From NCBI GenBank assembly GCA_964016885.1, contig OZ024743.1, positions 264,492,001 to 264,556,000 on the forward strand: DNA of 64,000 bases, written 5' to 3'. The stretch is from Eledone cirrhosa (Eukaryota). The translations under genes were made by a program, and so were the position numbers. Under the pieces are notes generated by a model. It made no database searches. It saw only the letters and a program-made list of their open reading frames with translations, and was not told where the DNA came from. Shown piece after piece: positions 9,285 to 64,000 of the stretch (position 1 is the first letter of the stretch; every line of letters begins with the position of its first letter).

Positions 9285-9555
9285 CCATATTTATTTTATT
9301 ATATATATTTCAAGGGTACCAAGACAACATTGGTACGCTTTTATAAAATAAAATACAAAGTTTGTTTTATAAATAGAGACGTGTCCATTAAAATCATACC
9401 TTATCGGTTGGAAATTCACAGTGAATTTCCAACCGATAAGGTATGATTTTCATGGGTACGTCACTATTTATGAAACAAACTTTGTAATTTATCTGATGAA
9501 AGTGTACCAATGTTGTCTTGGTACCCTTGAAATATATATAATAACATAAATATGG
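9285..9555. repeat. Fold-back palindrome of a PLE terminal repeat (135-bp arms)
   Basis: Symmetry centre at 9420 (GAAATTCAC-A-GTGAATTTC). The right arm is homologous to the PLE 3' end at ~43358-43480. Confidence 0.9.
9489..9544 (+). ncRNA. Type I hammerhead ribozyme
   Basis: TTAT-CTGATGA-AAG t GTACCAA tgttgtc TTGGTAC c CTT-GAAA-TATATA-TA-ATAA. The mirror copy in the left arm has lost CUGAUGA. Confidence 0.85.
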
Positions 9556-9938: not shown

Positions 9939-12733
9939 GCCATGAACAGATCAAGCCTCACCAGAAAGGCGGTTGATATAATACTAGTAGCTAGGAAAAC
10001 TTTACTACAATTTGACGGTAAATTGTTGGAACGACAGAATAGACCAGATAGATTCGACATTACAATGGGGTCGACCGACTCCGCAGAGGTTACCGATATA
10101 GTAGGCCTATACCTCCTAAATATATTAACATATGAGATGCCCACCATGGGCGGTGGCTTGTACCGTGACGACGCCTTACTAATAGTCAGTGGACTCAATA
10201 ATAGCCAATAAGATAGACTACACAAACGGCTTAGATATATCTTTACGACCCAAGAATTATCGGTAGAAATAGAACCCAACAGTACGACAGTAAACTTCTT
10301 AGACCTCACTTTTGACACAGGTCTCTACCGCCCTTACCATAAAGCAAATGAACACCTCAAATATGTCAACAGACACTCCAACCACCCTATGAGCAAAATT
10401 AACGCAATAATTAAAAGCGTTTCTTATAGCGTGTCCACCCTGTCGGCAAATAGAACTATCTTCAACCAGCACGCGGAATACTATAACTGCACACTTGAAA
10501 AGGCTGGTTACATTGAGAAGATATGTTACAACGACCCAACTAGAACCGCAACCCCACTAAACATAATCAGACCCTTAGAAACGCACATAGACTAGGACAC
10601 CACACCTAGAACAAATACTAACCCAACACACTCCTTAGCCGGCAGGACAGGCAGCGTTACACACAATTGCCAACGAGATAAAGCTATAATCTCCAACACC
10701 AATAAGGACTCTGATTATCGCACGCGTATACGTAGTAATAGAGATCCAAGACATAACGCCAATAGAATATTTGGAACCCCTATGACATATACGCCTGACC
10801 AAAACGCACCCACTCAACCACCAAATCAAAACAACCACACTAAACACCATAAAGCCCGAAGTAGACCTGTGACATGGTACAACGCACCGTACTATAGCCA
10901 AGTTGCCACCAATATACCGGGGACCTTCTCCAGAGCTCTGGAACAATCATTCCCACACACATAAATACCACAAGCTCTTCGATAGACACACTGTCAAAAT
11001 CTCTTTCTCTACAGCACCAAATCTAGGCGCCACGATAGCACACACTAATAGGACAAAAATACGCAAACACATGGTAGCTCCACAACAAACCACTAGCAGA
11101 TCCCAGAACGAAACCACACACACAGCACAACACAACAACCCACATGCAGTTCCACACAGAATACGAAAAACCGACAACGTGCCATCAAACAGGTAATCCC
11201 CAACTGCAATTGCAAAAAGCGGGTAGATTGCCCACTAAATGAGGAGTGCCTCGTTGAAAACATTATTTACCGGTGCGATGTCACAGCTGGCAGAAAAGAG
11301 TATCCTATATAGGTGCGACCTTGATTACGTTTAAGGACCGTTGGTATAACCATAAAAGCTCATTTAAACACAGGATCAAACGATCCCAAAATAGACTGGC
11401 CGACTTGATCTGGGACCTCAAAGACAAGAACATCGAAATCCAGATCATATGGTCAGTTAAAAGACGCGTGACCCAACTCCCCAGCGACAGAAACCACTGC
11501 AGGCTATATCTGGCCGAGACGGCTGAGATCATTAAATTGAAATCTGCCATAAATTCTAGGTCTGACATAATTATAAATTGTAGACACACCACGTTGAACA
11601 CCTTCTCTGCACAAACATTCGGCCGAGGGCCAAACACTAACTCTGATTCAACATAATGATAAACACCTTGCCTTGCCACACCGTCCCTCATCTCAGTGCA
11701 TTTGTCTTATATAACATGTAACCCTTTGTAAGTTCAGATTTTGTAAATATCATGTCGCTTCCATCACCCCCAGCAACAGACACATTGCCATATATCCCTC
11801 ATCACAGTACCATTGTATTCTATCTGTCCTCTCTGTCAGGTTTTACCTTGTAAACCTTCGTAACATCCGATCTTGTAAATATAATGTCGAACATATCACT
11901 CCGTCGCCACCACCACCACCATCACCATACACGTCGCTATACGTCAACCATTCTTCATTCACAACCTTGTTTTCCCCGTGTTCCCTATGTCATTTTTTAA
12001 CCTGTAATCCATCGTACAATTCGATCCTGTAAATATTTTGTCGCTCCCACCACCACCGCCACCAACAGGCACATCTACATACTTCAACAATCATCAACAT
12101 CACCAACACATATCCCTCCCTAAACAACGCATGTGTGTGTGTCTGTGTGTAACTATATTTATTTGTACAACGCCATCTCCACTGGCTCTCTCTTTATATA
12201 TATATATATATATATACACATGTGTATGTATACAACCTATTTGTCAGAATAAGTGTGTCTATGTGTATCTCCTTATTGAAATTGACACCACCAACACTTT
12301 CATCACGCCACCATAAACACCATTACCACAAACAACAACACGACACTCACACCACGCACAAAAATCAGCCTCAGCTACATACCAATCAGTCTACCGATAA
12401 CCAGCACCGCCAACGCCGCCGCCCACTTCAGCCTGCGACCGTCACTACCATCTTATCACCACCCCACCCCCCATATACACTACAGGCAAAAACATCGCTA
12501 TGAATTAATCCACCAACAAAACAAAATGTATTGACCAACATATGAACTTGTGACTTTATCATAGAAAATGTATTCATGCTCTACTAGCATTACAAGGGGT
12601 CCGACGACGGCAGATTACAGAGTCGGGTAAGATCGATACAGATCGAACCTTGAGCTGATCAGTGGCGAAACGCGCGTCACGAATAAATAAATGTAATGAA
12701 GGAGTAACCAATCGTCCTTGTTATCTTTTCACT
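9936..12733 (+). mobile_element. 5'-truncated Penelope-like element (Naiad-like RT + GIY-YIG), decayed
   Basis: FDITMGSTDSAEVTDIVGLY, GLYRDD, VNFLDLT, WYNAPYYS, CNCKKRVDCPLNEECL, SYIGAT..FKDRWYNH, CRH. Contains stops and frameshifts, a long 3' UTR with decayed HHR and AATAAA, and (TA)n at both ends. Confidence 0.9.
12598..12680 (+). ncRNA. Decayed PLE hammerhead ribozyme
   Basis: GGT-CCGACGA-(long stem II)-GAAA-CGCGCG-TC-AC, then AATAAA at 12682. Core U>C. Confidence 0.55.
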
Positions 12734-15529: not shown

Positions 15530-16013
15530 AATATATAAATTTCGTATTTACAAAGAAATATGATTTTAGGAAGCGAACACCAGGGGGCAAACGCACTCTA
15601 GTGTTGTGCAGCAAAAGCAAGGGGGACAACCGTCTATGCTTTTCAGGCTTGACTGGCCACCGTAAGGACGATCCCTCCCACCTCTCTGCGACTGCTGGAC
15701 TTGAAAACAGCCGCGAACATATAGTTTTCTCGTCTGTGTAAATGAGGTGATTAATCTTATTTGCATATGAATCTGCATAAGCTGGTTCAACTTATAATGG
15801 AAAAGAAATAGGATTTCGCTTCAAGCATAGCTTTAATACAATTCTGCTGGACACACCAGAGGGCACTAGCCCCCGGTTTTCGCATAGACACGGCTTTGTA
15901 AAATCGTATTTCTTTCGAAATACGAAATTCTTATACATATTGTATAAAGCTATGCTTGAAGCGAAATCCTATTTCTTTTCTACTATAAGTTGAGCCAACT
16001 TATGTAGCTTCAT

Positions 16014-16021
16014 ATGCAAAT
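16014..16021 (+). promoter_or_regulatory. Octamer motif ATGCAAAT upstream of the HHR
   Basis: Exact match. Retained in the inverted copy (ATTTGCAT, 15759-15766). Function inferred only. Confidence 0.4.
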
Positions 16022-16101
16022 GAGATTAATCACCTCATTTACACAGACGAGAAAACTATATGTTCTCGGCTGTTTTCAAGTCCAGCAGTCGTAGAGCAGT
16101 G

Positions 16102-16158
16102 GGGTGCTCGTCCTGACGATGGCCAGTCAAGCCTGAAATGCATAGACGGTTGTCGCCC
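16102..16158 (+). ncRNA. Type I hammerhead ribozyme
   Basis: GGGTG ct CGTC-CTGACGA-tGGC cagtcaa GCCt-GAAA-TGCA-TA-GACG gttgt CGCCC. Palindromic stem III (ATGCAT) and an internal loop in stem I. Decayed mirror copy at 15631-15670. Confidence 0.9.
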
Positions 16159-16343
16159 TTGCTTCTGCTGGATAACAGTAGAGGGCGTTAAACCCCGGTG
16201 TTCGCATAGCTAAGGCTTCCTAAAATCGTATTTCGAAAGAAATACGAAATTTCTATACATATTGTATAAAGCTATACTTGAAGCGAAATCCTATTTCTTT
16301 TATATATAAATATATAAACACATACAATTATATATATAAATTC

Positions 16344-31064: not shown

Positions 31065-31119
<55 letters not shown>

Positions 31120-31159
31120 TATGTATATATATGGAAGTGGTTACACAACAGTTAGTTCA

Positions 31160-31209
31160 CCATGCCGGGAACAATTGTTTCACCTTAGCGGATCTTCAGC
31201 TCGTAATGG
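31160..31209 (-). ncRNA. Type I hammerhead ribozyme (left arm)
   Basis: CGAG-CTGAAGA-tCC gctaa GGt-GAAA-CAATTG-TT-CCCG. One mismatch in stem I. Confidence 0.8.
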
Positions 31210-31321
31210 ACATGGTTATACGGAACAGGAAGGACAACCGTACGAACGCGCATGCGTAGAAATGATCATTTCTACGCATGCGCCTTCTTACTGTTGTCCT
31301 TCCTGTTCCGTATAACCATGT

Positions 31322-31371
31322 CCATTACGAGCTGAGGATCCGCTAAGGTGAAACAATTGTTCTCGGTATGG
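31322..31371 (+). ncRNA. Type I hammerhead ribozyme (right arm)
   Basis: CCAT ta CGAG-CTGAGGA-tCC gctaa GGt-GAAA-CAATTG-TT-CTCG gt ATGG. Confidence 0.85.
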
Positions 31372-31397
31372 TGAACTAACTGATGTGTAACCACTTC

Positions 31398-31429
<32 letters not shown>

Positions 31430-31430
31430 C

Positions 31431-32549
<1,119 letters not shown>

Positions 32550-36229: not shown

Positions 36230-36849
36230 ATTTAATAAAACGGAACTGAAAATAGTTATTATAATGCCTAAGTAAATAATTAAATTACAATTTTACCCTG
36301 CATAAAAGGCAGTTGGTAATTACTTTTACTACCCTCCACTCCCATATTTTTGAAATTTACATATTTCCTAGTCAATATGCACACTCATATTATCATGTCA
36401 TTTTTTAAGCATATGTCTGTTAATGTCTGGATTTGCAGAAGCACTACATTTTGATATACTGTTTTTAATACCAATTCTGCTTTGCTATTGGATGTGAAAT
36501 GCGATGTATTAAATGGTATGGTATGAACCTATTCTATGGTATGGAATTATCTCTTGATGTAATATACTTGAGAATTCAAACTATATATAAATTCCTGAAG
36601 GTATGTTTAGCGAGGAACATATAACTCGTATGTATCGTGGTATGGCGCACAACTCTACATTGAAACACATGTAGAATTGAAATAATGTTTTAAGTATAGC
36701 TTTGTTATTCTCTCTATATAAAATAAATGTTGAGCTCTGCACCCGTAGCCTGAAACTCTACAACAAAATCTCCAGCGACAGGGAAAATCATCAGCCGAAT
36801 TTCATGATAACGTAACAAGGTAGTTTAATGTCATACCCAGGACAGAAAT

Positions 36850-39800
36850 ATGGAGAGTCGATCTAACAGTACTAGGGTTAGAGCCCCTAATTACAGAGCA
36901 GCCTGGTCGTTATGACTCTGCTGGCTTAGAGCCACAGAGAGGGCCAGTGGATGATGGATCAGCTGTCTCTGAGACAAATATAAAGAATGCAGTTTTGTCC
37001 TGCAGAAGAGCAATCACAATGGGCACTTTGAATGTGAGGACTATTCGGACGCTGGAGAAGAGAGAGGAGTTGGGACATCTGTTCGAGGAGAGTGGTATAC
37101 AGATACTTGCGATCCAAGAACACAGGATTCTACACGATGAGCCCGTGAGGAGTGTGATGATCGGGAAGAAGAGCCAGCTCATCACTACATCAGCAGTGAA
37201 GAACACAACAAATGCTGCAGTAAGAGGAGTGGGTTTTGTGTTCAGTGCAAAAACCAATCTGTTGGTGAGGGGAATAATGCCTATCTCCCCGCGAGTGTTG
37301 AGGGTGACCTTCAATGGAAAACCAAGACTGACAGTCATCTCAGCCTATAGAACAACCAAGGGGGACAGTGATGTGAATGCGGAAGAGTTCCACGAGGAGG
37401 TGTGTAGAGCTGTCAACACCACTCAGGCACACAATATCCTGCTTGTTTTGGGGGACTTCAATGCACATCTGAGTAAGGAGGGCAGTGAAGATCCTTGCTG
37501 GTACTTCCATAACATCACCAACCGAAAAGGAAGACTACTGAGAGACACCCTGCTGGAGGCGAACTTGATGGCGACCAACCTAAGGTTTAGGAAGAATCTG
37601 GGGAAGATGTGGACCTACATCTCAGATATGCAGCTGTCCAAGTCCCAGATTGATTTCATTCTGGTGAGGAAAAAGTGGCGGAATAGTGTTCTGAACACGG
37701 AACCATACAGCTATTTCAGTACACTGGGTAGTGACCACCGGCTTGTTATGAGTGAGGTCCGCGTGAGCTTAAGAAAGAGTAAGGCTCAGCCCTGGAGAAC
37801 AATCTAATACTGGGGAGCTTTCAAGGAAGATGATAAGCTACAGGAGAGGTTCACAGTGGAAGTGAGAAACAGGTTTAGTGCTCTGTGTGGAGAGTCAGAG
37901 GAGAGAGAGATTGGATGGACTGAGGAGAGTGTGACGAGGAGGTACGGGGACTTCACCAATGCAGTGGCGGAAGCAAGTGAAATCCTGGTGCCGGGGAAAA
38001 AGAACAAAGGGAAGCACGTCAGCTCTGCAAACCCAAAAGTGTGTGCAGCCAGAGAACACCTGAAAGCTGCCAGGGACCAATTCTATGCTGATTCTACGGA
38101 GGAGAGGATGGATACTGTGGAGGTGATGAGGGAAGAGCTCTGTGCCGCTTACACTGAGGTCAGAGAGGAGGCACTGATATAGAAGATCAGAAGCGTGGAG
38201 AGAGCGGTTGACAGATCTGGATGTAAGGAGAGCTGGATGATCATCAACGAGATCACAGGGAGGAAGAGAAGGTGTTCGAATCAGATCCAGGGAACGGGGC
38301 CCGAGGATAGGAAGAGGAAATGGCTAGACCATTTTAGGACCCTACTAGGAGAGCCACCCTCCACAGCCCAGAGCACTGGGGAGATCAGGCGGCTGTTTGA
38401 GGAACTGGATGTTGAGACAGAGCCCTTCACCAGAGAGGAGCTTCAGAGAGCCAAGAAGAAGATCAAGGAGGACAAGGCTCATGGAGAAGTTGGAGTGGCA
38501 TCAGAGGTGATGAAGAGGTGTGATTTTGATGATATCATCCTGGGGTTCTGTAACGGGGCACAGGAGAAAGGAGTTGCCCCGAATCAGTGGAGGATCAGTA
38601 ACATCGTCCCAGTGCCAAAGAAGGGAGATCTCTCTAACACCAACAACTACCGGGGGATCTCACTGACGTCACTTGTGGCAAAGAGCCTCAACAGGATGAT
38701 TCTTAACAGGATCCAGCCTGAGATGGAGGAGAAGCTCAGGGACAACCAGAACGGCTTCAGAGAGGGTAGATCAACCACCAGTCACATCCTGATGCTGAGG
38801 AGGATATTAGAGGGAGCTAGAGCAAAGTGCCTTCCTGCGGTCATGGTTTTCATTGACTTTAGGAAGGCCTTTGATTCTGTGGACCGTTACTGCCTGATGA
38901 AGATCTTACAGGCTTATGGAATCCCCAAGAGGATAGTGGACCTGATATTACTGCTCTAAACCAACACCAAAGCCCAAGTCATTACACCTGATGGGATGAC
39001 AGAGTTCTTTGTGATACTGGCTGGAGTACTCCAGCGAGATACATTGGCTCCCTACCTTTTTATCATCGTAGTGGACTATTGTATGCGCCTTGCACTGGAG
39101 AAACACCAGGACTTTGGCTTTACTGTAGCACCGGCTCAGAGCAGGAGAGTTAGGGCGAAAAAGGTATCGGATGCTGAATTTGCCGACGACATAGTTTTGG
39201 TGACAAATACAGTGAAGGAGGCAGAGGATTTGATGCGGGATGTTGAGACTGTGTCGATGAGTGTGGGGCTGATAATGAATGAGACTAAAACAAAATATCT
39301 GGTAGAGAATGTTGAGAAGCCACAGAGGATCACTAATGTAGGCGGGAAGCCGCTGGAATTGGTTGAGGACTTCCTGTATCTGGGAGCAAAGATTGGGAAT
39401 ACGGAAGATGATCTGGTTGAGAGGAAGAGCAAGGCCTGGGGGCGTGCCACAGCTTGAGATCGGTGTGGAAGTCGGACCTTCGTAGAGACCTGAAAATCCG
39501 CCTCTTCATTGCTGTAGTGGAGTCTGTGCTGCTGTATGGGTCTGAGACTTGGACAAAGACCAAGAAACTCACTCAGATGGTGGATGGGTGCTACACGAGA
39601 ATGCTGAGGATGGCTCTGAACATTAATCAGTATACACTGAGGATGAAAAACTCAGAGCTGTATGGGAGCATCCCAAAAGTCAGCTCAAAAGTGACACAGA
39701 GGAGACTGAGGTTAGCTGGATATGCTCACCGACATCCAGAGTTGACATTGCACTCAGTACTCCTTTGGGAGCCCCTACATGGACACACTAGAAGAGGAAG

Positions 39801-39934
39801 ACCAAGGTTAACGTATGTTGATGCCCTAAGGACAGACACTGGTCTGTTGGAGATGCAGGACATGGCAGCGATAATGAGGGACAGAGACCGCCGGAGAGAA
39901 CTCGTGTATGGATCTTGGGAATTTTACCCGCCTT

Positions 39935-39937
<3 letters not shown>
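36850..39937 (+). mobile_element. Near full-length RTE-type LINE (APE endonuclease + RT), inactivated
   Basis: GTLNVRT, LAIQEHR, LGDFNAH, SDH; PVPKKGDL..NYRGISL, QNGFREGRST, FIDFRKAFDS, GVLQRDTLAP, FADD, FLYLG. Stops at 37805, 38180 and 38957; frameshift near 39450. 5' boundary approximate. Confidence 0.93.
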
Positions 39938-40005
<68 letters not shown>

Positions 40006-40006
40006 T

Positions 40007-40171
<165 letters not shown>

Positions 40172-40187
40172 GTATATATATATATAA

Positions 40188-43100
40188 ACCAATAATAATA
40201 AAAACCAATAATAATAAAACCAATAATCTTTACGGAATACAAAAGGACATTTATAACGACCTTATATTGAAGGAACTAAGGAAGAAATACAAAGTACCAA
40301 ATAAGGACGAACTTGAAAAACTGAATACAGATGCCTCTTGTATAATGCATGAACTAGGCATTGAAAATAAAACACAACCCTTCATGCCAAGGAAACCTAA
40401 GATTAATATGAAGGATCAGAAAAGAAACTTTCAAAATGATTTACCTGTCAGATTAATTGCACCATCTAAATCTGACCTTGGCAGACTTAGAAAAAATATT
40501 CTAGACAGAATAATACAACAAATTAAGAATTTACCTAATTTATCTTACTTAAAATTATGGAAAGGGACTAGTGAGGTTATCGATTGGTTTAAAGAAATTA
40601 AATATAACTATAATAATAAGTTTATTCAGTTGGATATTGCTAACTACTACTCATCTATCACTCCTAATCTACTGAATAAGGCACTAACTTACGCATTTAA
40701 ACATACAGACCTAACTAGCAATGAAATGCACATTATATTATCGGCAGGGAAAACATTAATAGCATTTAATAACCAACTCTGGACTAGGGCAGATAGAAAT
40801 AATAATTTCGACATAACTATGGGATCTTAAGACTCAGCTCAGGTAACGGACCTTGTGGGCCTATTTATAATTAATTATCTACATAGAAAAATACCAGGTG
40901 TAACCGGAGGATTATATCGTGACGACATGCTTTTACTTATAGAAAATAATAGCTGTGAACTAAATAGAAAAAGAAAACAAATTATACAATTTTTTAATTA
41001 CCTTAATCTAAAAGTAGAAATAGAGAATAACCATAAAATAGTCAATTTTCTAGATGTAACACTAAATCTTAACACATGTCTTCATTATCCATTTCACAAA
41101 CTAAAAGAGAACTTAAATTATGTCAATTTTAACTATAATCACCCCAGATCCGTTAAAAATACTATTGTGAACTATGTACAAGAACGAATTTCAAGAATTT
41201 CATCTAATAAGAATATATTTGATAAAAAAGCACATTATTACAACGAAGGGTTAGGTAGAGCTTGGTATAGAAATAAAATTAAATACATCGATAATAATAA
41301 TAATATAAAAACTAACCAAAATAATAACAATTTTAACTATGGTAACAATTTTAACAACTATAATAGAAAACATTACAATAATTCCGAAAGCCGAAAAAGA
41401 AATAGAACTAGGAATATACTATGGTTCACTAAATATTAAAACCCCTATTGCTAAACTATTCTTTAAAGCTCTTGACAAACGCTCCCCTAGAACACATAGA
41501 TATTACTCAATTTTTAATAGACATACTATAAAATTTACTTACTCTTCCACCAAAATTTTAGCGCAAAATATTAATAGAATTAATAATAGAAATTTTAAAC
41601 CTAACCAAAATACCAATAATAACCCAAGCAATATTCAATCGAATAATTGTAACTGTAGAAATAAATCCAACTGTCCGTTAAATAACAACTGCTTAGCTAA
41701 ACATGTAGTTTATAATTGTAATGTTAAAACTAATTTAAATTCATTTAATTATGTCGGTTCTACCTCCACAGAGTTTAAATGCCGCTTCAATAATCATAAA
41801 AATTATTTTACAGATCCAAACAAAAAATCCTCGACTTCGCTATCTAGCCTATTATGGGACCTAAAACGAGATAATGTTGAATATTCGCTGATTTGGAATA
41901 TTATTTCAAAAGCTACTCCTTTTAATTCCTCTTCAGAAAATTGCGATCTTTGTATAGAGGAAATATTCTTTATATTAAAGACCAAAAATTCCCTTAATTT
42001 AAGGAATAATTTATTCAGTTGCTGCAGACATAGAATGAACTCAATGTTTAAATATAAATATAAATTTAAAATGTAGTATAATTAATTAAGTAATTTGGTT
42101 AATATATGAAATCTGTCGATAAATCATTAGATTCCTTCACCTTTTTCATTTTCTTTGGTTAAGTACTCAAGTATAAATACATTTTCTCAATAAATATAAA
42201 TATAAATATAATAAACTATTCTAGAAAAGTTTATCCTTTCAATATCTTGAATAAAATATACTAAATCTATTAAACATTATTTTAACTTAAAATATTCTAT
42301 AATATTTTAAAATATTTTAATATTTTGATATTTGTAGAATTCTTTTGTTTTTAAGTTATATTGATATAATTATATTTCCAAAATATAATCCTTTTGTATT
42401 TTATGTACTCAATTGTACTATGTAATATATTGATGTATACTTATCTCTATACGATTATGTATGTATGTGTGTGTATTAACATACATATACATGTGTTACT
42501 TGCATTTTTATGAATATATGTCTGTCTGTATATATGCATGAGTGACGCGTGTCTACGAATTGGGTGAAGACGCCCACACATGTTTATATATGTATATGTA
42601 AGAATTGTGTGTGTACATGTACATGTGTACCCATGAAATTTGATTGCAGATAGGCATAATTTAACAGCCATAAATGCATTAAAGTTAATCCTATATATTT
42701 ATATATATATACTAAATTTTTTTATTTAATAACACAAGGGATGTATAACATTAATAAAAAAAATCATTTATGCTTTGTATGTATATATTATATGCGGGAG
42801 TAGATATAATGTGTATTTTCTGAGTGTGTGTGTATATATATTTATATATTTTTGCGTATATGTACGTGCTATATGATAGGTAATTTCTCTAGCAATATAT
42901 ATATTTCGTAATGTTTAAATTCCAATTTTTAATATATTGATCTCAATTTTTAAACTAAATATCTAATCATAGTTAAACAATGATTAATTTCTCATATTAT
43001 ATATGTATATTCCATTCATGAATATTAATATTTCTAATTTTATTTATTCATTTCATCTCAATTGTTAACTTAACTTAATATGACATGACTTAAGGTTTTC

Positions 43101-43506
43101 GTTCTCTCCCCTCTCTCTATCTCTATATTTATCTCTCTTGATTTTTTCTCTCTGTCTGGTGGTTTGATATCTTTCTGTTGTTTTTCTCTGTTTTCTTTTT
43201 TTCTTTTTTTTTTCTTCTTTTTCTTTATTTATCTCTCCGTTTCTTTCTCCACTTTTCTCTCTCTCCGTCTTTTTCCTTCTCCTTAACACGACGACTTACT
43301 AAAATAAACAAACCCACTATACTGATGTCTTCCAAAAGTAACGGTTGCATTTTGAAAGGGTACGTCAATGTTTATTTATAAAACTGGTATATATTGTATT
43401 TTGTCTGATGAAGGCATACCATAATTTAACATGGTATCCTTGAAATATGTATAATAAAATAGATATGGTTTTATAAATATAAATATATTTTCCATTTGTT
43501 AATATC

Positions 43507-43542: not shown

Positions 43543-46500
43543 GAAAAATTTGAACAGGGACAAAACAGAGAGGCAGTACAATAAATGTTTATTAATTTCA
43601 CGCTCAGGAGAGTGGGGCGTAGGTGGGGTACGACGTTTCGGGCATAAGCCCTTCCTCAGGTGAGAAGTGTGTGGGAACAGAGTTCAAAAGGTGTGTGGGG
43701 GAGTGGTGGAGAGACATATAGCGAAAGGAAACGGTGCGAATGAAAAATTAACAAATAAAGATAAAAATAAAAATAAAGCATGATCAAAATACAAGGAATG
43801 AGAAAATTTAAAAATAAAGGCATGATCAAAATAAACTGAAATTAAAAGGGGGTTAAACAGGTGGTGGAAGGGTGTGGGGTGAGTAGGGGTGGTGGCGGGT
43901 GGAGTGGGGAGACGGAGACGGGGTGTCCGAGTGGGGAGGGCTGAAGGTGGTGTGTGTATGTAGGTGTGCGTGTGTGTGTGTGTATGTGAAAGTAAGGGTT
44001 GGGGGAAGAACAGGGTTGCATGTTCAGGAAGAGGTGTGTGTGGGGGTGTTTTTGTGGGTCAGAGTGTCTGTGCGTGTGTGGATAGGGGGTGGGGGGAGAG
44101 GAATCAGGAGGCTGAGGGTGTAAATATGTGGTGGGAAGCACGTGTGTGAGAGGTTTAAGCGTGTTGTGGGTGTGGGTGGCGTGCGGAGAAAAAGATTTGT
44201 TTGGGGTGTGTGTGTGGGTGAGTTATATAGGTGATGACGTAAGAGGATGGTTGAAAAGTTGGTAAGTTCCAAGGATGTTTGGAGGATTGGTTATAAGTCA
44301 ATTTCTGCGTGTGGGTAATCCATGAAGCGGTGGTCGGAAGAGGAGAGATGTGGGGTGCGCGCGCAACAGGAAGTGGTCAGCAGTGGGAGTGCTGTGGTCT
44401 TTTGGTGCTGGGAGGTGGTCAGAAGGGCATAGCAGCAGTCGGTGGAATGGTAAGGGGGCGAGAATGGGTAGGTGAGAAAGTTGGAGTGAGGAGGGTGTGT
44501 GTGTGTGTGTGTGTATTAGTAGGGGTGTTAGTGGGATGAGTGAGTGTGGAGCGGGGGTGTGGGTGGAGCGGGGAGAGAAGGGTGTGTGTGGTTCTATGGA
44601 GGGAGTGTTGTGTACTGGTGTGTGTGTAGTTTGGTGAAGAGGTGTTAGTGGGTGTTAGTATACGGGAGGTGAGGAGGGGTTGAATGCAGGTGTGAGTGGG
44701 GGTTAGTGGTGGTAGGGTGTGTAGAGTTGGTGGTGTACGAGGGTGTGTGGGTACGTGTGCGTGGGGTTGGGGGGTGTTAGTGATGTTAGTTGCGTGTGGG
44801 GTGGGTGGTGTAAGTGGGTGCGTGTGTGCGTGTGATGAGGGGGAGGAGGAGAAGAGGGGAGGGAAGGGATGTTAGTATGTTAGTTGGGGAAGGGTGGTCA
44901 GATGAGGGGTGGAGTGGAGGTGTTAGTATTGTTAGTGTAGGGTGGGCGGTGAAAAGGAGGGGTGTGTTAGTGGGGGATAAGTGTGGGTTGTCGAACGCTA
45001 AAGGAATAAGGGTGGGGAGTTCAGGCCGGGGGAAGTGTGGGTCTGTAAGATGAAGATAGTTCGTTGTTCGACCGTAAGGCGATGGGCGGGTGTTCCGTGG
45101 CACTGGAGTAGGCCACAGACTGTGAGATGGCGTGCGGAGTCTCCAGGGCCACCAAAGTGGCGGGCGATGGGGGAACTGCCCCCGAGACGAATATCCCGGA
45201 GGTGCTCCGTGACTCGGTCCGCCAGGCGACGTCCCGTCTGTCCGACATAAGTCCGTAGACTAGGTTGGAGGAGGTGCAGCGGAAGGCATGCCGGACCGAG
45301 AGAGAGTGGCCGTTGGGACCCTGGAAGGTGGTGGTGTTGGTGATGTGGGGACAGGTGTTGCAGTGGGGCCTTGAACAGGGAAAGGAACCGGGAGGGGGGA
45401 ACAGAGCGTGGGTTGGGGGGTAGGGAGCTGTGGACGAGGAGGGTGCGGAGATTGCGTGCGCGTTTGAAGGAGGGGAGTGGTGGGGTTGGGAAGATGTGGG
45501 AGGTGGAGGGGTCGGACTGGAGGCGTCGGAAGAGGCGGCGGATGGTGCGGTGGAGGAGTAAGGTGGAGGGGTGGTAGGTGATGGGGAAGGGTAGACGGTG
45601 GGTTGGTGTGCGGTGGCGTGGGGTGAGGGTGGTGGAGCGGGGGATAGCACGGGCGCGGGTGAGAGCGGTGTAGACGAGAGAGAGGGGTAACCTCTGCGGA
45701 TGAAATGGCTGACTAGGGAAAGGGCCTGGGACTCGAAGTCAGCATCACGGCTACAGAGGCGGCGGATCCTGAGAAGTTGGGAGTAGGGAATGGAGTGTTT
45801 AGTGTGGGTGGGTTGGGAAGAGGTGAAGTCGAGGTAAGAGTGGGAGTCGGTGGGTTTGAAGAAGGCGGAGGTGACGAGGGAGTGGTGGGAGGGGTCGAAG
45901 GCGACGGAGATGTCTAAGAAGTGGACGTGGGTGGTGGAGATAGTGGTGGTGAAGTGGAGGGAGGGGTGGAAGGAGCAGAAGAAGGAGAGAAAGGAGTCGA
46001 GCTGTTCTCGGGTGAGGGTCGTGGCTCTGATACAGTCGTCAATGTAACGACCGTAGAGTTCGAGCGTGGGGCCGGTGTACTGGGCAAAGATTTGGGCCTC
46101 AACATGGCCAACAAAAAGGTTGGCATAGTTCGGGCCCATTCTTGTGCCCATGGCTACCCCCGTAACCTGTTGGTAAAACTCACCCGAGAAGGAGAAACAA
46201 TTTAGGCTGAGGACCAGCTCGGCGAGGCGAAGGGGGGTGGGGGTGGAGGGAATGGGGGAGGGGAGAAGGTCGAGGTAGAGTTTGAGGGCGCGAAGGCCGT
46301 CGGCGTGGGGGATGACTGTATAGAGGGACTTGATGTCTAGGGTGATGAGGAAGGGCTGTGGGCCGGGTAGTTAGGTGAAGGAGTCGAAAAGGCGCAGGGC
46401 GTGGTTCGTGTCGGAGATGTGGGAGGGGAGGGTGGTGACAAGGGGGGCGAGGAGGGAGTCGAGAAAGGCGGAGATGAGTTCGGTGGGGCAGTTGCAAGCG

Positions 46501-47885
46501 GAGACGATGTGGTGGCCGGGGTTGTCGGGTTTGTGGAGTTTGGGGAGGAAGTAGATGGTGGGGATACGGGGGTGCGGACGATGAGGTGGGAAGTGATGGG
46601 GGAGAGGAGGGAGGAGGCGATAAGGTCTTTGATGGTGGAGGAGACTTGTTGTTGGTAGAGGGGGTGGGATCGGAGGGTAGAGGGCGGTAAAAGAGGGGGT
46701 TACAGAGCTGCCTGAGGGCTTCGGCCGTGTAGAGGTCCGCGCGCCATACCACTACGGCGCCTCCCTTGTCCGCCGGTTTGATGACGATGTCATCTCGGCT
46801 GCGGAGGGAGCGGAGAGCGAGGAGTTCGCCCCGTGAGATATTGTGCCGTTTGGAACGGTGGCGGAAGTCGAAACGATTTACTGCGCTACGGCTGGCATCG
46901 ACGAAGGCGTCCAGGGTGCTAAATTGCCCTGGGGCCGGCGTCCAAGAAGATGGTCGTCGGCCCAGGGCGAGAAACGGGTCTGGGGCGTCCGGAGCCGTTG
47001 GCGTTCGGCCGAAATGTGCTTGTAGCATAGTGCGTCGCACGAATCGCTCGACTTCCGTTCGGGTGCGGAACTCGTCGCTGTGCGGAGTGTGGGGTATGAA
47101 GCGAAGGCCTCTACTAAGGAGTGAGCACTCAGGTGAGGAGAGGGGGAGATCAGGGGGTACGGTGACACCAAGGGGGTTGGGGGGTTGGGGGTGGAGGGGG
47201 AGATCGGGTAGGGGGTCGAGGGAGAGGTGGAGAGTGGTGGGCGTATGGGGATGGGCGGGTGGTGGTGGATGGGGGTGGGTAGAAGTGAGTGTAGCTTGCG
47301 GGCTTTGGTGGAGCTGAGGAACGAGAAGAGGTTGTGGTTGAGGTTGTGGATGAAGGAGAGGATGGCTTGGGCGAGGAGGGGGTGGCAGGTGGAGTAAAGG
47401 CGGAAGGGGGTGGGGGTCAGTTGGTGGTCAAGTAGGCGGAGGGAGGAATGGGAGGCGCGGATGGAGTTGCGCTCCAGGGGGCGTGAGGATCGGGTGAGGA
47501 TACGTTGCGTGGAGGGGCAAGCGGCGGGGGAGGGGTAGAAGTGTAGACGGAAGCCGAGGGGGATAAGGTGGAGGCGGAGGCAGTGGCTGAGGAAATGGAT
47601 GTGGCTGTAGTGCCGGGTTTTGGCGAAGAGAAGGTAGGAGAGTTGAAGGGCGGAGGGGAGATAGCAGGGTGGGAGGAGGGGGTGAGGAAAAGTTCGAGGC
47701 GATTGTGTAGTTGGTGGAGAAAGGATCTCAGGTTGGGCATGATGGGCGTTGGGTGAAAGCAGGGGGAGGGATGAGACGGCAGGGGTGTGAAGCGGGGTGG
47801 AGTGAACGAAGGGGTGAGTACGAAGGATAGGCAGAGACGGGGAAGGGAAATGAAACAGAAAAACGTAGGGAGGGGGGAGTAAACA
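43541..47885 (-). mobile_element. Near full-length GC-rich Penelope-like element (RT + GIY-YIG), frameshifted
   Basis: Probable ATG at 47740; KPADKGGAVVVW, GVAMGTRMGPNYANLFVG, YGRYIDDC, FLDISV, KPTDSHSYL, CSRPHCNTC, NLVY..YVGQTGRRLADRVTEH. ~1.4-kb C/A-rich 3' UTR, HHR and AATAAA near the 3' end. Confidence 0.92.
43629..43662 (-). ncRNA. Minimal type I hammerhead ribozyme of PLE
   Basis: CAC-CTGAGGA-a GGGC ttat GCCC-GAAA-CG-TC-GTA. Palindromic ACGT stem III. Confidence 0.85.
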
Positions 47886-47914
47886 CACATATATATATAT
47901 GTATATATATATAT

Positions 47915-48941
47915 GGTATCAGACAAGAGGGACTAGATATCCAACTAGCCTACTCAGGACATTTTCTACGCAGACAGCTAACCAAAAGACACTCCACCAG
48001 ACACGACAGCCGCTGCAAACTAGCCAACTGCCCCATCAACGACACAGACCTATGCCACCAGGCTTACGTCGTATACAGATTAGAGTGCGACAAATGCAGC
48101 AATTTCTGCATAGGTAGCACCTCCAGACCTCTTCACATAAGAATAAAAGAACACCTGAATACAAACGCTTCCTCATTTAAGAAACAGCTAGTGAAATGCA
48201 AAAACACCGACAAAAGCATAATAGTTCGGATAGAAGCTAAGGAAAGAAACCTCGGCAATCTTAGAATTAAATAAGCACTGATTATAGACAAAACGCAACC
48301 ACCAATCAATAACAGACTAGAACTCAACACCCTATATTTAACATGATAGAGCACCTAGCCCCACACTTACACCTCCACATACACTCTCCCTGACACACAC
48401 ACGCACACGCACGCACATACACACAGACTTACACCTCCACTTATTCTCTCTCACACACACACATACACAGACAAAGACCAGTTTTAACATAACAGAGCAT
48501 CTAGCCCCCACATTCACATATAGACATATCCTCTCACACTCACACACACACGCACACGCACACATATGCTTACACCTTCACAAATTCTCCCACACACACT
48601 TAAACATACATGTCCAAATCCTTTTTAAAGGGAGACAACTCTTTATCCACCTAACCTTCATTTTTTTACATTAGAAATAGAATGGAATTTCTATACCATT
48701 TCCTGTCAGCATGATTTGGTAAGCTAATTAGAAACTGGATTAACCCTTTACTTCCCTCCGAAGAAGAGATATTATCTCTAAAATTAAGGATATTCAAATA
48801 AATTTAAGGTAAAATACTAATTTTCAGCAATATCTTTTGCATTTGTATTTATATTCTATATCCATACCTGCATTGTTTTGGCCTTCTAACTCCAAATGTT
48901 TATACCTCATTACGCAATGCTTCAAGTAAACTAGAATTTCC

Positions 48942-49188: not shown

Positions 49189-49294
49189 AATTAGTATATC
49201 TACCAACATATTTATACAGAGGTATACATATGCTAGCAAGATATAGGTTTTGTCTTAGTAACTTTGTTGTTCAATACAAAAATGTAGAAGAATT

Positions 49295-49394
49295 ATATGA
49301 AAAACGTAAAACAAGAAAATTATAATAATTAACTTACTTACTTTTAAGTAAGTAAGTTAATTATTATAATTTTCTTATTTTACGTCTTTCATAT
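49295..49394. repeat. ~100-bp AT-rich palindrome
   Basis: ATATGAAAAACGTAAAACAAGAAAATTATAATAATTAACTTACTTAC pairs with GTAAGTAAGTTAATTATTATAATTTTCTTATTTTACGTCTTTCATAT. Confidence 0.85.
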
Positions 49395-49406
49395 ATATAT
49401 ATATAT

Positions 49407-50083
49407 ATGCCGTTAGCTTCTTGCTAAAACAATCTCTATACCTCTCATTTATATTTATACTCGGATTCTTTTCCTAGAGTGCTTAGACTATCTGTGACTA
49501 ATCCCGGTTTTTTTCATAAAAACTGTGATAATTATTGCTATTTTGCTGAACTCCTTTTGTACAGTTTTTTTTCAGAATGTATTTGACTGCTATTTCTTGT
49601 AAATAAACATTCACTTCCATCCTGACGTCACTAGCCCCGTTTTTTCCTCATGTGCTTTTACATAATTACATATGAAGGCGAACTAGCCAGTTTTAGAATT
49701 CCCTTTTTCGGATTATATTACTGTGAGAGCCCTGGTTTTCCGTTGAGCTCTGCTGATGAATGAAATCCAACCGTGACCATCTCCACTGAAAGTTTTCATG
49801 AAATAGTCTTTTAAGACTATACAGAGCATTTGATGTTATTCCAAATTGAAGGATAAGTGTTTCAAACTTTATTTTATCATGAGTTAAAGGTCTATAGATT
49901 TTTCCCCGGATTTCACTAAATTCTGTGGATGAATTTATATCCTGATTCTCTTTTGAGATGAGTTTGAGTTATTTTTCCTAAATCTTTCGTTAACTACTTT
50001 TCCCATCTTGACGTTATAGTCGCATATATGTTATAGAATGCCGTTAGCTTCTTGCTAAAACAATCTCTATAACTCTCATTTAT
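49407..50083 (+). mobile_element. Retrozyme-like monomer (631 bp) with ~46-bp terminal direct redundancy
   Basis: ATGCCGTTAGCTTCTTGCTAAAACAATCTCTATA.CTCTCATTTAT at 49407 and 50038, with a central HHR and (TA)n flanks. No ORF. Confidence 0.8.
49747..49827 (+). ncRNA. Type I hammerhead ribozyme with three full stems
   Basis: GCTCTG-CTGATGA-ATGAAA..TTTCAT-GAAA-TAGTCT ttta AGACTA-TA-CAGAGC. Confidence 0.93.
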
Positions 50084-50172
50084 ATATATATGGTATATAT
50101 ATATATATATATATATAAATATATGGTATATATATATATATATATACCATATATATGGTATATATATATATA

Positions 50173-55769: not shown

Positions 55770-55902
55770 GATCAAAATATGGTTAAAAGAGACCATCAAA
55801 GGTAAGGTATCCGATATAAGAGTTAGCGCTCAAACAGTCAAGGAGCAAGTTAATGTAGGAGGTGAGTTTTATTGCAGCACAATAAAGCAATGCAAATATC
55901 GG

Positions 55903-55973
<71 letters not shown>

Positions 55974-55977
<4 letters not shown>

Positions 55978-56566
55978 GGAATAGAATGAAACGAAATTAC
56001 GCCGTAAATGATCGGTAAACTGATACGTGCATATATATGTGTGCATGTATGTATATATATACATGCTACTGTACGTCTGTATACATATATGTATGTACGT
56101 ATACATACATACATACATACATACATACATACTTACATTTAAGTAACTGCCGTACTAAGAGTGAGAAATGAAATTTCGTTTCATTCTATTCCATTTATCG
56201 TTTTCGGTGCGCCCAGCCGTCTAAACTCACTCGATATGCAAATTAGGCTGCTCAGCCGTTAATATGCATAAAGAAAGTATATACTTTCAGATGATCAACC
56301 ATCTGGCAGGAAGGTATACGATGCTGACGATAGCTAATAAGCTTGAAACTAGTACATCGTTCCTGTGTCAGTGTTGAACAAAAAGGTGACGTGGCTGCCT
56401 AAACTCTGTACGGCATAATTCGGGCTGTTTGTTTGTTTACAAACAAACAAACCGCGCATTATAATAAATGTTCGGTAAAGCGATACGTGCTTATATATAT
56501 GTGTGCATGTATGTATATATATGCATACTACTCTACGTCTGTATACATATATGTATGTACGTATAC

Positions 56567-56580
<14 letters not shown>
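55974..56580 (+). mobile_element. Retrozyme-like monomer (460 bp) with ~110-bp terminal redundancy and a 25-bp 5' inversion
   Basis: Direct repeats start at 56006 and 56466. 55974-55998 is the reverse complement of 56172-56196. Contains an HHR and an octamer (56236-56243). Confidence 0.8.
56307..56365 (+). ncRNA. Type I hammerhead ribozyme
   Basis: CAGGA aggtat ACGATG-CTGACGA-tAGC taataa GCTt-GAAA-CTAG-TA-CATCGT TCCTG. Palindromic ACTAGT stem III and a bulged stem I. Confidence 0.92.
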
Positions 56581-56625
<45 letters not shown>

Positions 56626-56628
<3 letters not shown>

Positions 56629-57205
56629 TCCTTACGATTCGAACACATGCATGTTTATATTAGTGTTCATCTTTCTTGTTTATTCAATTATATTGTACGG
56701 CTCGGAAAAGCTTTTTCTTAGAGCTATTTAATTGTAAGAGACTACCCTGAGTTCTTAACTCAATATGTATTTGACGGCTCCATCATGTAGAGCTAATTTC
56801 TATTGTCCTGTCAGCCAGACTGCTATTTTTAGCGGCAGGGAATTTCGAGACAAGCTGGGTTACGAATGACACGGGCGATAATTCATATCATACACCATTC
56901 ATTCTCAAATATTTTTTAGAAGTGAAAAGATCACTAATTTATCAACAACTACTGATGAACAGAGAAACGTGAGAACTTCACTTAATAAGTCGTTGTGAAA
57001 GAGTCTCCAACACTGTCTAGTTGTTACCAGGCATTTTTGTCCAATATAGGTATGTTATTTTTCTTAATTTTTCTTAATTTAATATTTAAAGTTAAGGATA
57101 ACAAACTATATTGCTGTGATTAGTATTTTTTCACCCTAGTAAATTTGGTCCTTACGATTCGAACACATGTATGTTTATATTAGTGTTCATCTTTCTTGTT
57201 TATTC

Positions 57206-57213
<8 letters not shown>
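56626..57213 (+). mobile_element. Retrozyme-like monomer (520 bp) with 68-bp terminal direct redundancy
   Basis: TGGTCCTTACGATTCGAACACATG...TATTCAATTATAT at 56626 and 57146 (1 mismatch). Internal HHR, (TA)n flanks. Confidence 0.82.
56944..57025 (+). ncRNA. Type I hammerhead ribozyme
   Basis: AACAACTA-CTGATGA-ACAG..TTGT-GAAA-gAGT ctccaac ACTg-TC-TAGTTGTT. 8-bp stem I, GUC triplet, one G.G mismatch in stem III. Confidence 0.85.
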
Positions 57214-57307: not shown

Positions 57308-57363
57308 ACTGCTATATATATTTCGATGATAGCTATTGAATGGCTATGACCTCATCAGGCAGT
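57308..57363 (-). ncRNA. Type I hammerhead ribozyme
   Basis: ACTGC-CTGATGA-GGTcATAGC cattcaata GCTATcATC-GAAA-TATATA-TA-GCAGT, followed by AATAAA. Confidence 0.88.
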
Positions 57364-57435: not shown

Positions 57436-59272
57436 CAGTATGTCCACGATATACGGTAGTTCTTTATCCGGTAAATTCGCAAATACGGTTTTGGGTAATT
57501 ACTAACATCAAGTCTATTTACGGTAAAAAAATATTCACAGATACATTTTTTATACGTGTTTTGTTTATATTGTACCGTAGCGCCACCTGTAGTAAGCAAT
57601 AAATTCCCCCTTGAATTCGTGGAAAGTGACTGCTATTCGAATTCTAGGAAAACTGGTTCGGCAATTCAGTTCGGCAAACTAGCATGTTCTCTCAGTGAGA
57701 GAATTTTTGCCGAACTGAAGTGACCAATTAAGAGTTATGATGTCATTCAAAGTAAGAGAAAACCCGACGGAGTGTTTCTGGAGCATAATTATCACGGCAT
57801 ATCTTATAACCCCATATCTCATGGCCCCAAAACGTCCTTCGAATATTGCTGATTCAGATGGAAAGGCCAAACGCATGAGGAAGAGCCTGAATTTGGAGAT
57901 AAAGCTGAGCATTTTGAAAAGGAAGGAACAGGGGCTAGGTTCGTCCGCCATAAGTCGTAACTTAGGCCTAGCCCAGTCTACAGCGTGGACTGTTTTAAAA
58001 AATAGTGAGGCTGTCAAAAAAGCTGAGTCTACAGAGTAAATTGTTGACCAAACATCGTGAGCCGATTTTGGATAGGATGGAAACGTTGCTCAAAGTTTGG
58101 ATCGACGACCAAAATCGTCAAAATATACCTCTGTCTTTAAATGTAATCTTGAGAAAGCATTGTCCATTATTGACAGCCTCAAGACTGAAATAAGGGTGGA
58201 GGACTTTGTATTCAAGGCAAGCAAAGGCTGGTTTGATAAGACTAATCAGAAAATATTGAGGTTTTGTTTCTCCCCCCAAACACCACATCTCTCATTCAGC
58301 CGATGAATCAAACAGTCATCAAAACATTTAAGGCATACTACCAGCGGGGAACCATGCAGCAGCTGATAAAGGGCACAGATGGGCCACGATCAGAGAATGG
58401 TGGAAATTGTACAATATCAAGCACGGCTTAGACAACATCAAGGCATCTTGGGAAGAAGTGAAGCACTTGGCCTGGAAGAAATTATGGCCAGCATGTGTGA
58501 ATATCTTCGAAGGCTTTGCTGAGGACATTGGTGCGATAAAAAAAGATATTATAAATCTCTGCCATAGAGCTGGCTTCGAAGGTGTTAATGATGATGATGT
58601 GCAAGACCTTTTGGAAAGCCATGCTGGACCACTCTCCAATGATGAACTCATAGAACTAAACAAGGCGCTACAGGAGACAGAAAATGAAGAGGAGGAAAAA
58701 GACTATACTGAGCGTGTCTTCGACATAAAAACTCTAAGAGAATGTCTCGGGAGTATCGAAACAATCTTAGAAACCCTGAAGGAGCGTCACCCCAACCCTG
58801 CTAGGAGCAGCAATGTGGCTCAAGATTCGAGAAAATCGTCAAGATTTACCAAGAAATGTATGAAGCCAAAAGAAACACCGCCAAACAGTCCTCCAGCAAC
58901 CCTTTCTTCAAGCCAGTCACTCCTGCCAACCGTGTTACAGATGGCCCTTCAACATCCACTGATGTCAACGAGTTTGTTGGTTTTGAGCCTCCCACATCAC
59001 TCTCATCCTCCCCTGCCAACTGAGCCCAAGAGGAGTAAGGGCTGAAACCCATACTGTCCCTTAGCCTCAGGAGGTACAAATGAAGAGGCACATCATCTGA
59101 TGGACTACACGGCATGTGTAAGGTACAATAAATTAAAAAAAAAACATTATTTCTTTTCTGTAGGGATAACTTTTTCGATGAACTGGAACACATCCCTATC
59201 TATTTCATGTTATAATTCGATATACGGTAAGGGTTTCAGGAATGGATATGTACCGTATATCGAGGATATATA
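57436..59272 (+). mobile_element. Tigger/pogo DNA transposon, internally deleted
   Basis: TA|CAGTATGTCCACGATATACGGTA left TIR and TACCGTATATCGAGGATATA right TIR. CENP-B-type HTH (MAPKR..RKSLNLEIKLSILKR), WIDDQ, FKASKGWF, then directly FLPPNTTSLIQPMNQ. Confidence 0.9.
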
Positions 59273-61710: not shown

Positions 61711-62814
61711 GAGAGAGAGAGAGAGAGAGAGAGGTTGAAGGTTAGGGAAAAGGTTAGAGAGGGAAAGAGAGAGGGAGAGAGAGATAAGTCCAGTGAGAAA
61801 TGTAAGAAGCGATTTAGAGGGAATGAGAGAGTGAGAGAGAGAGAGTGAGTGAGGGAGAGAGAGAGAAAGAAGAAGAAGAATAAAAAAGAGAAAGGGGAGA
61901 GATAGGAGAGAGACAGAAGAGAGGAGCGAGAGAGATAGTGGGAATAGTGGGGGGGGGTGAGAGAGAGAGGGAGATAAGTCCAGTGAGAAATTCAAGGTTC
62001 GATTTAGAGGAGAAGAGAGAGGGAGATAGGGAGAAAGAAAGAAGGAAAGAGACAGAGTGAAAGATAGCAGCGTATACTTGAAACGGTCAAATATTAATAA
62101 TTAATGTCGTTCGAAAAACAAAAAATATTTCGCGATTAAAACACCAAAACAAAGTGAAAACAAATGATATCAACATGAAATATAAAAGGAGACAAAATAA
62201 ATAAATAAAAATAAATTAATGAAACCCAAATAAACTAAAGATATAGAATCGCGAAAGATTTATATAAGTTGATTTTAACTGCAGGTATCGGCTTGTTTAC
62301 AAATATAAACAACGGATACCGTATATATATATCGTGAAACGTAGTTATCACAATATCAATATATCAAAAACATTAACAAATATATATGCTCACTGAGTTA
62401 AAAATGAAAATAAAATTATATTAAATCACGTTACGCAAAATAAAATAAAATTAGATTACGTTACGTTACGTAACTAGCTTTCTATATTATGTATGACAGA
62501 CCAAAGAAAGCACGTGTGTGTGTCTCGTTTTTTAGAATATAATCAAACAGCGAAAATAAACCCATTTAAAACGCTAGGATACGTAAAGTAATCGCGTCAA
62601 AATACAGATACTTATCTTTTACGAGGTTTTGTGTTAATTCTAGGGAATTAGCACAGCAAAATCTTCCTGATTTCTGTCGATTTAAATTTCAAATCTCGCG
62701 GTAAGGGAAAACACGACCAAACAACAAGTTGCCAAGCCTATATACCTATATATATATATGTGTATACAATTAGACATCAACCATTAGTAGAATTATATAT
62801 ATATATGTATATAT

Positions 62815-64000
62815 ACAACTAGACATCAACAATTACTACTCCTCTATCTCTCCCATAGTCCTGAACAAGGCACTCATATTCACGATCAATAGGACAGACT
62901 TAACATGCGACGAGGTCCGAATCATACACGCCGCCAGAAAGACCCTGATCCGATTCAGTGGGGACATATGGACCCGGAGCGACTGGTCAAGTAATTTTGG
63001 CATTACAATGGGCTCCAGTGACTCTGCGCAACTAACGGTGTTGGTTGGGATATACATACTCTACGAGATCAGGAGAGAAATACCCAACCTGGGTGGCGGG
63101 CTGTACCGAGACGACACACTCTTCACCGTAGTGGACAAGAGCACCACAATGGTCGAAAATATGAAGAGGAGAATTAGGCACTTCTTTACCAAGGTAGGAC
63201 TTAAAGTAGAGATGAAACCCAATAGAAAAGTAGTGAATTTCCTGGACACCACGCTCAACCTCAACACCAAGCTACACCACCCATATCATAAACCCAATGA
63301 CGAGCTGGTGTATATCAACGCTGGGTCCAAGCACCCTAGATCTATAGTTAAGGCCGTAGATAAGAGTGTCTCTGACAGGATCTCTAACTTGTCGGCCAAT
63401 AAAGAGATCTTCAATAGTAACGCTGATTACTATACCTCAGCGCTAGCTAAGGCATCCCACAGCCATAGGATCAGCTATAACCCTAAGGGACATGATCGAG
63501 ATGACCCAAGGGTACCCCGGACCAATAGCCTCAGGGGCATGAGTCGCCCACCTAATACCTCGGTGACCAGTAGTAACACTTCCAGACCCCTATCCGTCAC
63601 CACCCAAGATATAATGTCCCCCATACCGCACCGGTCTAATACCTACAACGCTGAAGACCACTGTGCTGCGGAGAATAGGCACCCCTGCACCGGCCCCAAC
63701 ACCCGCCGAACCCTAATTGAGCAGGGAGGCCGCACCTCGCAGGTTTATAGCCCTACGGTGGGTCCATAAAACCCTCATGATAGTGACCGCTCCGCACACA
63801 AGAGTGATACCAACCGAGCTCGACCTGAGCTGTGCACAACCAGGCGATGGACCACGGCAGACACCCAACAACCCCTCAGGAATAGGACCAGGAAGGTCAC
63901 ATGGTATAACCCTCCGTACTCGGTGGGTCTACGTACCAGCCTGGCTAGAACATTCTTTAGAGTACTGGATAAATGTTTCCCTAGGGCCCACAAGTACCAT
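62815..64000 (+). mobile_element. 5'-truncated Penelope-like element (Naiad-like RT), runs off the window
   Basis: QLDINNYYSSISP, ITMGSSDSAQLTVLVG, GGGLYRDD, VNFLDTTLNL, PYHKPN, WYNPPYS. Starts in (TA)n. Confidence 0.9.

Follow-up and report, generated by a model that had tools for sequence, protein, structure and literature searches.

A candidate retrozyme-type element with a predicted dimer-type hammerhead and Penelope-like insertion ends in Eledone cirrhosa

A 64-kb stretch of Eledone cirrhosa DNA (the window) carries, at positions 55974-56580, what is probably a non-autonomous retrozyme-type element, a 460-nt unit for which a Penelope-like RT/GIY-YIG protein would have done the copying in trans. 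A sequence-only reading of this element had implied a retrozyme-like class with a dimer-type hammerhead, a redundancy and an inversion. That assignment appears to stand, and it is strengthened by a sibling element found in the same window. What the present analysis adds is the comparison of the two, which would tie a retrozyme-type unit to ends of the type made by Penelope-like elements (PLEs). The enzyme moving animal retrozymes has so far been argued from co-occurrence and pseudo-LTR similarity, as set out in the cited passages of bioRxiv 10.64898/2026.07.22.740005 and PMC7229834. The two diverged units with PLE-type scars, whose 3' end is common within 0–5 nt and lies far from the ribozyme cut, are direct, testable evidence of a different kind.

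Results

The element comprises 1.25 units of a 460-nt repeat, with a forward part of 576 nt and a direct-repeat period of 460–462 nt (Table 1). The redundancy of the 460-nt monomer claimed from the first reading is present, the copies at 56005-56118 and 56465-56580 being identical at 108 of 114 aligned bases, with 6 substitutions and one 2-nt indel. Similarly, the claimed 5' inversion is an exact reverse complement (27/27), and an inverted match of at least 13 nt arose in 0 of 500 shuffles; the inverted piece extends over about 25–27 nt, of which 2–3 nt are common to the left TA tract. The longest ATG-started ORF has 75 aa and is partly of low complexity, there is no RT-like ORF in the element, and the GC content is 35% in the 2-kb bin around it. 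The 460-nt unit has a stable fold (z −5.2), and the part without the internal microsatellite tract gives z −2.75. Within the 64-kb window, we found no close copy of the unit, no long tandem arrays of it and no tRNA; a blastn search of phages gave no match, as expected for animal DNA. Its relatives in the 64 kb are a diverged sibling and, possibly, a second, decayed one.

Table 1. Features of the element and of its sibling (positions are those of the window).
Feature	Position	Strand	Remarks
Left (TA)n tract	55907..55974	.	68 bp; probable insertion target; masks any target-site duplication
Inverted 5'-truncated copy	55972..55998	-	27/27 = reverse complement of 56172-56198
Junction filler	55995..56006	-	11/12 match to reverse complement of 56409-56420
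Upstream partial unit, pseudo-LTR-like redundancy	56005..56118	+	108/114 vs 56465-56580
Internal composite TA/TG/TACA microsatellite, copy 1	56031..56134	+	sibling without tract
Candidate "tail" between two observed 3' ends	56119..56196	+	inferred; 78 nt, ~62 without TACA run
Predicted hairpin, octamer in its 5' arm	56235..56270	+	
Octamer ATGCAAAT	56236..56243	+	88 nt upstream of ribozyme core
Canonical type I hammerhead	56307..56365	+	predicted cut after 56354
(GTTT)/(AAAC) hairpin	56424..56455	+	sibling: different-sequence hairpin at equivalent place
Downstream repeat copy	56465..56580	+	right end inside own microsatellite, after AC-rich stem-loop
Right (TA)n tract	56579..56626	.	48 bp
Sibling, long inverted copy	15537..15842	-	278/312 identical to direct copy; ribozyme core mutated
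Sibling, ~1.4 units of 322-nt repeat	15842..16301	+	octamer 16014, hammerhead core 16113, palindrome ATGCAT

The diverged sibling, absent from the earlier reading, lies at 15537-16301, and its parts follow the order seen in the element: a TA-rich tract, an inverted copy, a partial tandem, the octamer, the hammerhead and a second TA-rich tract. The two align colinearly with 182 of 305 positions identical, and their score of 157 compares with 86.6 ± 8.0 in shuffles (maximum 113, n = 300). Three segments outside the ribozyme and octamer scored 55, 29 and 30 against 37.5 ± 5.7, 21.4 ± 3.8 and 22.7 ± 4.3, that is, ~3.1, 2.0 and 1.7 SD above the shuffles, with each score exceeded by at least 1 of the 300. 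The family status of the element rests on this one relative, ~60% identical and located within the same 64-kb window.

A possible decayed relative was also noticed at 24330-23870 (minus strand). Among 254 scanned windows, self matches apart, it aligned best with the ribozyme region (48, median 19); its core is broken and it has no intact octamer.

The hammerhead of the element consists of the core CTGACGA (56324-56330), helix II (56332-56343), GAAA (56345-56348) and the palindrome ACTAGT (56348-56353), with cleavage predicted after 56354. Helix I has 6 bp, helix II has 4 bp over a U.U pair, and helix III is one pair with a palindromic tetraloop. The canonical metazoan type I form, as given in the cited part of PMC4209133, has a helix I of 6 bp, a helix II of 4 bp and a helix III of 1–2 bp with a palindromic loop, and the fit of the element to this form supports the retrozyme reading. 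In the cited passages of PMC7229834, the axolotl HHR_Amex1 has a helix III of this one-pair, palindromic-tetraloop kind and Amex2 has a U.U at the base of helix II; the element combines the two. Our own hammerhead descriptor, whose thresholds were chosen after the element had been seen, matched three times in the window and in 0 of 150 shuffled windows. Rfam gave zero matches in the window at the gathering level, and none of its 84 weak matches came from the hammerhead family; these were rejected, being mostly miRNA models on simple repeats. A degenerate ribozyme pattern found 0 loci in prokaryotic genome contigs, as expected for animal DNA.

Could this ribozyme be of the type that works as a dimer? 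When the unit was folded as a circle, the predicted pair probabilities were 0.5–0.99 for helices I and II and 0.0 for helix III, and pairing of the palindrome between two copies was predicted at about −4.7 to −4.8 kcal/mol in the element and sibling alike. The palindrome of helix III is kept with a different sequence (ATGCAT in the sibling vs. ACTAGT in the element), and the two differ by three compensatory pairs in helix I and one in helix II, counted in an alignment of three rows of which two come from one element. The kept palindromes, the compensatory pairs and the absence of helix III in the monomer support a dimer-type ribozyme that would be under selection. Against this reading, a recent in vitro test, in the portion cited here, saw cleavage in only 1 of 9 predicted retrozyme dimers (bioRxiv 10.64898/2026.07.22.740005).

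Only one hammerhead core occurs in 55974-56580. A single ribozyme means a single cut, so that no unit-length circle would be released here by double cleavage and any circles must originate at another locus. Furthermore, religation at 56354/56355 restores the genomic sequence, so junction reads cannot prove a circle; the circRNA junction after 56354, which had been suggested as a diagnostic, is therefore uninformative.

The octamer ATGCAAAT, noted in the first reading and located at 56236-56243, occurs in the window at a chance-level frequency (7 vs. 5.6 ± 2.3 expected; 34 of 100 shuffles reach 7). Its position is similar in the two units, 88 nt (element) and 99 nt (sibling) upstream of the hammerhead core and 40 nt and 35 nt, respectively, after the long end described below, and it is kept in all three aligned copies. 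In the element, the 5' arm of a predicted hairpin contains the octamer, and in the sibling the octamer overlaps a hairpin, so RNA structure could explain its retention. On the other hand, the 3' arms deviate from the perfect complement in different ways with the octamer unchanged, which leans slightly towards an octamer kept for sequence recognition rather than for structure. A position-matched octamer is a lead on the transcription of such units outside amphibians. We rejected the 5' edge of the repeat as a start site, since it lies 229 nt after the octamer and the sibling gives ~149 nt.

In newt satellite 2, the octamer belongs to an snRNA-type promoter, together with a proximal element. There, as in the element, the octamer lies upstream of the ribozyme. 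The snRNA-type promoter of satellite 2 is reported in the cited part of PMC2220036. The element differs in being dispersed rather than part of a long array and in that a hairpin may be the reason why its octamer is kept, and its host, unlike that of the amphibian retrozymes, appears to be an invertebrate. In the literature searched, we found no paper that combines the hammerhead and octamer motifs. The left flank contains a second ATGCAAAT (55890-55897); no ribozyme follows it at the spacing typical of the family, and it is probably there by chance.

The inverted and direct copies stop apart, by 78 nt in the element and by ~50 nt in the sibling. The outer end of the inverted piece is the "long" 3' end of the element (equal to 56196-56198). 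The long ends of the two units match at 11 of 14 ungapped positions, such a match occurring among 447 sibling positions at the two equivalent places and nowhere else, and in a MAFFT alignment they fall five columns apart and not at the same base; the long end is thus shared within 0–5 nt. Neither end coincides with the ribozyme cut. The short end of the sibling follows a hairpin and the right end of the element follows the AC-rich stem-loop; alternatively, this right end could have been produced by a deletion that later removed sequence between the TACA and TA tracts, and not by priming. Both elements are inserted between TA tracts without a visible target duplication. The 6 nt between the inversion and the repeat were probably templated from 56409-56420 in a second template switch, as suggested by the filler-like match (11/12), which arose in 13 of 2000 shuffles.

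Two templates or mechanisms did not account for these junctions. L1-type twin priming, the mechanism used for comparison, was rejected because the start of the inverted piece does not adjoin the forward 5' end but lies 193 nt downstream of it (or, measured in the tandem, 267 nt upstream). A linear monomer cut by the ribozyme was rejected as the template because the insert spans the cut site.

The TA/TACA microsatellite had been placed within the redundant segment, and it is indeed present in both repeat copies as the same tract (score 164; best elsewhere in the window 90). Consequently, either the template already contained the tract or a local duplication took place after the tract had formed. 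It is absent from the sibling, which makes it a derived insertion. The units differ in length by 138 nt, roughly the tract plus some 30 nt beside it, and a sibling-like ancestor probably acquired the microsatellite in its tail. The microsatellite predates the duplication at this locus; as a family trait it finds no support within the 64 kb, where the sibling is without it. Could each insertion nevertheless deposit a new target tract, as had been proposed? The pure TA runs in the internal tract are only 10 and 9 nt long compared with 68 TA runs of at least 20 bp in the window, neither copy of the internal tract contains a secondary insertion, and the only clear relative has no tract; the proposal is weak on these grounds. 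A role for the tract, if any, would more economically be priming by microhomology than service as a new target. Among the literature titles found, none described a retrozyme with its own microsatellite target or octamer.

Discussion

In the mechanism that we favor, a tandem source locus elsewhere would be transcribed. The template would be a circle or an uncleaved multimer, because the insert exceeds one unit in length and runs through an intact cleavage site; both templates agree equally well with the sequence. The endonuclease would nick both strands of a (TA)n tract. One strand would prime at the conserved tail-end site (56196) and yield the short inverted piece, while the other would prime inside the AC-rich tract, probably via 2–3 nt of TA microhomology, and copy 576 nt. 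The two cDNAs would then be joined head to head via a short templated filler. The resulting copy is probably a dead end unless it is cleaved in trans. From the shared long end, RT start sites can be predicted and used in an in vitro assay.

The PLE reading draws on features that match published hallmarks. According to the cited part of PMC8557442, PLE insertions show partial tandems, an adjacent inverted 5'-truncated copy, a 30–40-bp tail at one end and a (TA)n bias. A PLE protein studied in vitro extended both target strands; its RT began at two internal sites of an AC-rich stem-loop in the RNA, which was uncleaved (PMC11167929, cited passages). The element resembles the insertions of Neptune/Naiad and Chlamys, as covered in the cited parts of PMC8557442 and PMC11167929, in its partial tandem, its inverted 5'-truncated copy, its candidate one-sided tail, its (TA)n target without visible duplication and its ends unrelated to the ribozyme cut. 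The presence of RT and GIY-YIG-type ORFs in the window is a further argument for this reading. The element differs from PLEs in several respects: it has no RT–GIY-YIG ORF, such as an autonomous PLE would carry; its candidate tail of 78 nt, like that of the sibling (~50 nt), exceeds the 30–40 bp given in the source; and, in the cited text of PMC8557442, Naiads and most Chlamys elements are without canonical hammerheads.

The element has an intact type I hammerhead core and is short, non-coding and below 50% GC, the marks of non-LTR retrozymes. With the metazoan non-LTR retrozymes of PMC7229834 and bioRxiv 10.64898/2026.07.22.740005, as they appear in the cited sections, it has in common a non-coding AT-rich unit, a canonical type I hammerhead, a stable fold and co-occurrence with PLEs, and monomeric dispersed copies are described there. 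It differs from them in consisting of 1.25 units with one ribozyme, where at least two tandem units with a ribozyme each mark a copy as "active", and so it falls into the published "monomer" class of retrozyme copies (bioRxiv 10.64898/2026.07.22.740005, cited part). Unit sizes are given as 150–450 bp in the passages cited from PMC7229834 and as 51–972 bp in those from bioRxiv 10.64898/2026.07.22.740005; the latter also proposes a PLE origin of retrozymes from co-occurrence and a pseudo-LTR phylogeny. The metazoan retrozyme descriptions in these passages mention neither an inverted 5' copy nor a tail, and likewise no TA targeting, octamer or internal microsatellite.

Could the element be a composite made at this locus from a sibling-like insertion, a local microsatellite and a DNA-level duplication of ~460 bp, with no mobile unit involved? 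The sibling without the tract, the absence of a second tract-containing unit from the window and the abundance of unstable TA runs in the region would all agree with such an origin, which we nevertheless consider unlikely. The gap between the 5' edge of the repeat and the inverted piece is 6 nt and is bridged by templated filler. The same abutting arrangement is found in the sibling, which a random duplication need not produce, and the tract sits inside the tail, flanked by two anchors common to the sibling.

Another possibility is a family replicating through circles that brings its own insertion target along and seeds it, thereby creating target space for itself. The tract is in both copies and hence in the template, the unit folds stably with and without the tract (the z values given above), and more-than-unit copying from circles has already been proposed (PMC7229834 and PMC4209133, cited passages). 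This origin is improbable, given that the internal pure TA runs of 9–10 nt are short beside the 68 longer runs of the window, that neither internal copy has received an insertion, that the sibling spread without the tract, and that the same scar would result from an uncleaved multimer, without any circle. It is very unlikely that the element is an orphan pseudo-LTR remnant of an autonomous PLE that was never mobile as a short unit: type I hammerheads are indeed known from PLE pseudo-LTRs and the majority of genomic motifs stand alone (PMC4209133, cited part), and PLE-type ORFs and further hammerheads are common in the window, but the repeat closes after 460 nt without an RT-like ORF, the sibling closes after 322 nt, and the ribozyme is of the canonical retrozyme type and not of the minimal or long-helix-II PLE type.

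Returning to copying in trans by a PLE-type protein, one extension of this reading would be that an invertebrate retrozyme lineage has its own conserved octamer promoter, in the manner of newt satellite 2, and is PLE-mobilised from fixed internal starts, and that one branch primes from a captured piece of its microsatellite target and thereby spreads TA/TACA seeds, which later grow into new targets. We regard this extension as rather doubtful. Were the tract to prove common to the family, PLE activity and the spread of microsatellites would be connected.

Other Features of the Window

The animal DNA of the window is AT-rich and free of N, and it contains 80 tandem-repeat rows and many broken transposon ORFs. 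For the ORF at 45531-46370 (minus strand), 101 homologues were found, most with RVT_1 and several with PF01541, which we take to be GIY-YIG. An RT and GIY-YIG-type ORF at 45001-47918 (minus strand), frameshifted and GC-skewed, is a candidate for the partner class and is presumably Neptune-like by its motifs. A second PLE-like type, missed by Pfam, is represented by three broken ORFs (10212-11656, 40003-42076 and 62774-63769), which we assume from their motifs to be Hydra-like. The ORF at 40831-41280 has 19 homologues, two of them from cephalopods at 38–47% identity.

A relaxed hammerhead search gave no match in five regions, among them the two ends of the 45.0–47.9-kb ORF and the sequence 5' of the 62.8-kb ORF, and beside the two scanned PLE-type ORFs neither a hammerhead nor end homology was found. 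Across 17 window regions including the PLE flanks, no end or ribozyme homology to a partner was convincing; the ORF copies are broken and maybe truncated. Three weak flank alignments (z 2.7–3.4) were dismissed as chance among 68 comparisons.

Further repeat units and hammerheads occur in the window. A unit between TA tracts at 49294-50090 has an inverted repeat (49294-49395), a direct repeat of period ~633 and, at 49753, a hammerhead-like motif whose helix III is long. An adjoining partial tandem of period 520 (56620-57213) has the right TA tract in common with the element, and no hammerhead was found in it. Hammerheads with a long helix II and a TA-rich loop III occur at 57358 (minus strand) and at 43405 and 9493 (plus strand); the last lies inside a 271-bp inverted repeat (9285-9555), of which 9285-9375 resembles 43373-43468. 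A 338-bp inverted repeat between TA tracts at 31097-31432 contains a weak hammerhead-like motif at 31332. Since units of repeat plus inversion recur in the window, the architecture is ordinary for the Eledone cirrhosa genome.

The broken ORFs also include one at 2510-5465 (minus strand), presumably helicase-type (Helitron-like), and one at 58332-59045 (plus strand) that we take to be transposase-like. A broken LINE ORF at 36824-40002 (plus strand) has AP-endonuclease and RT domains, both confirmed by Pfam.
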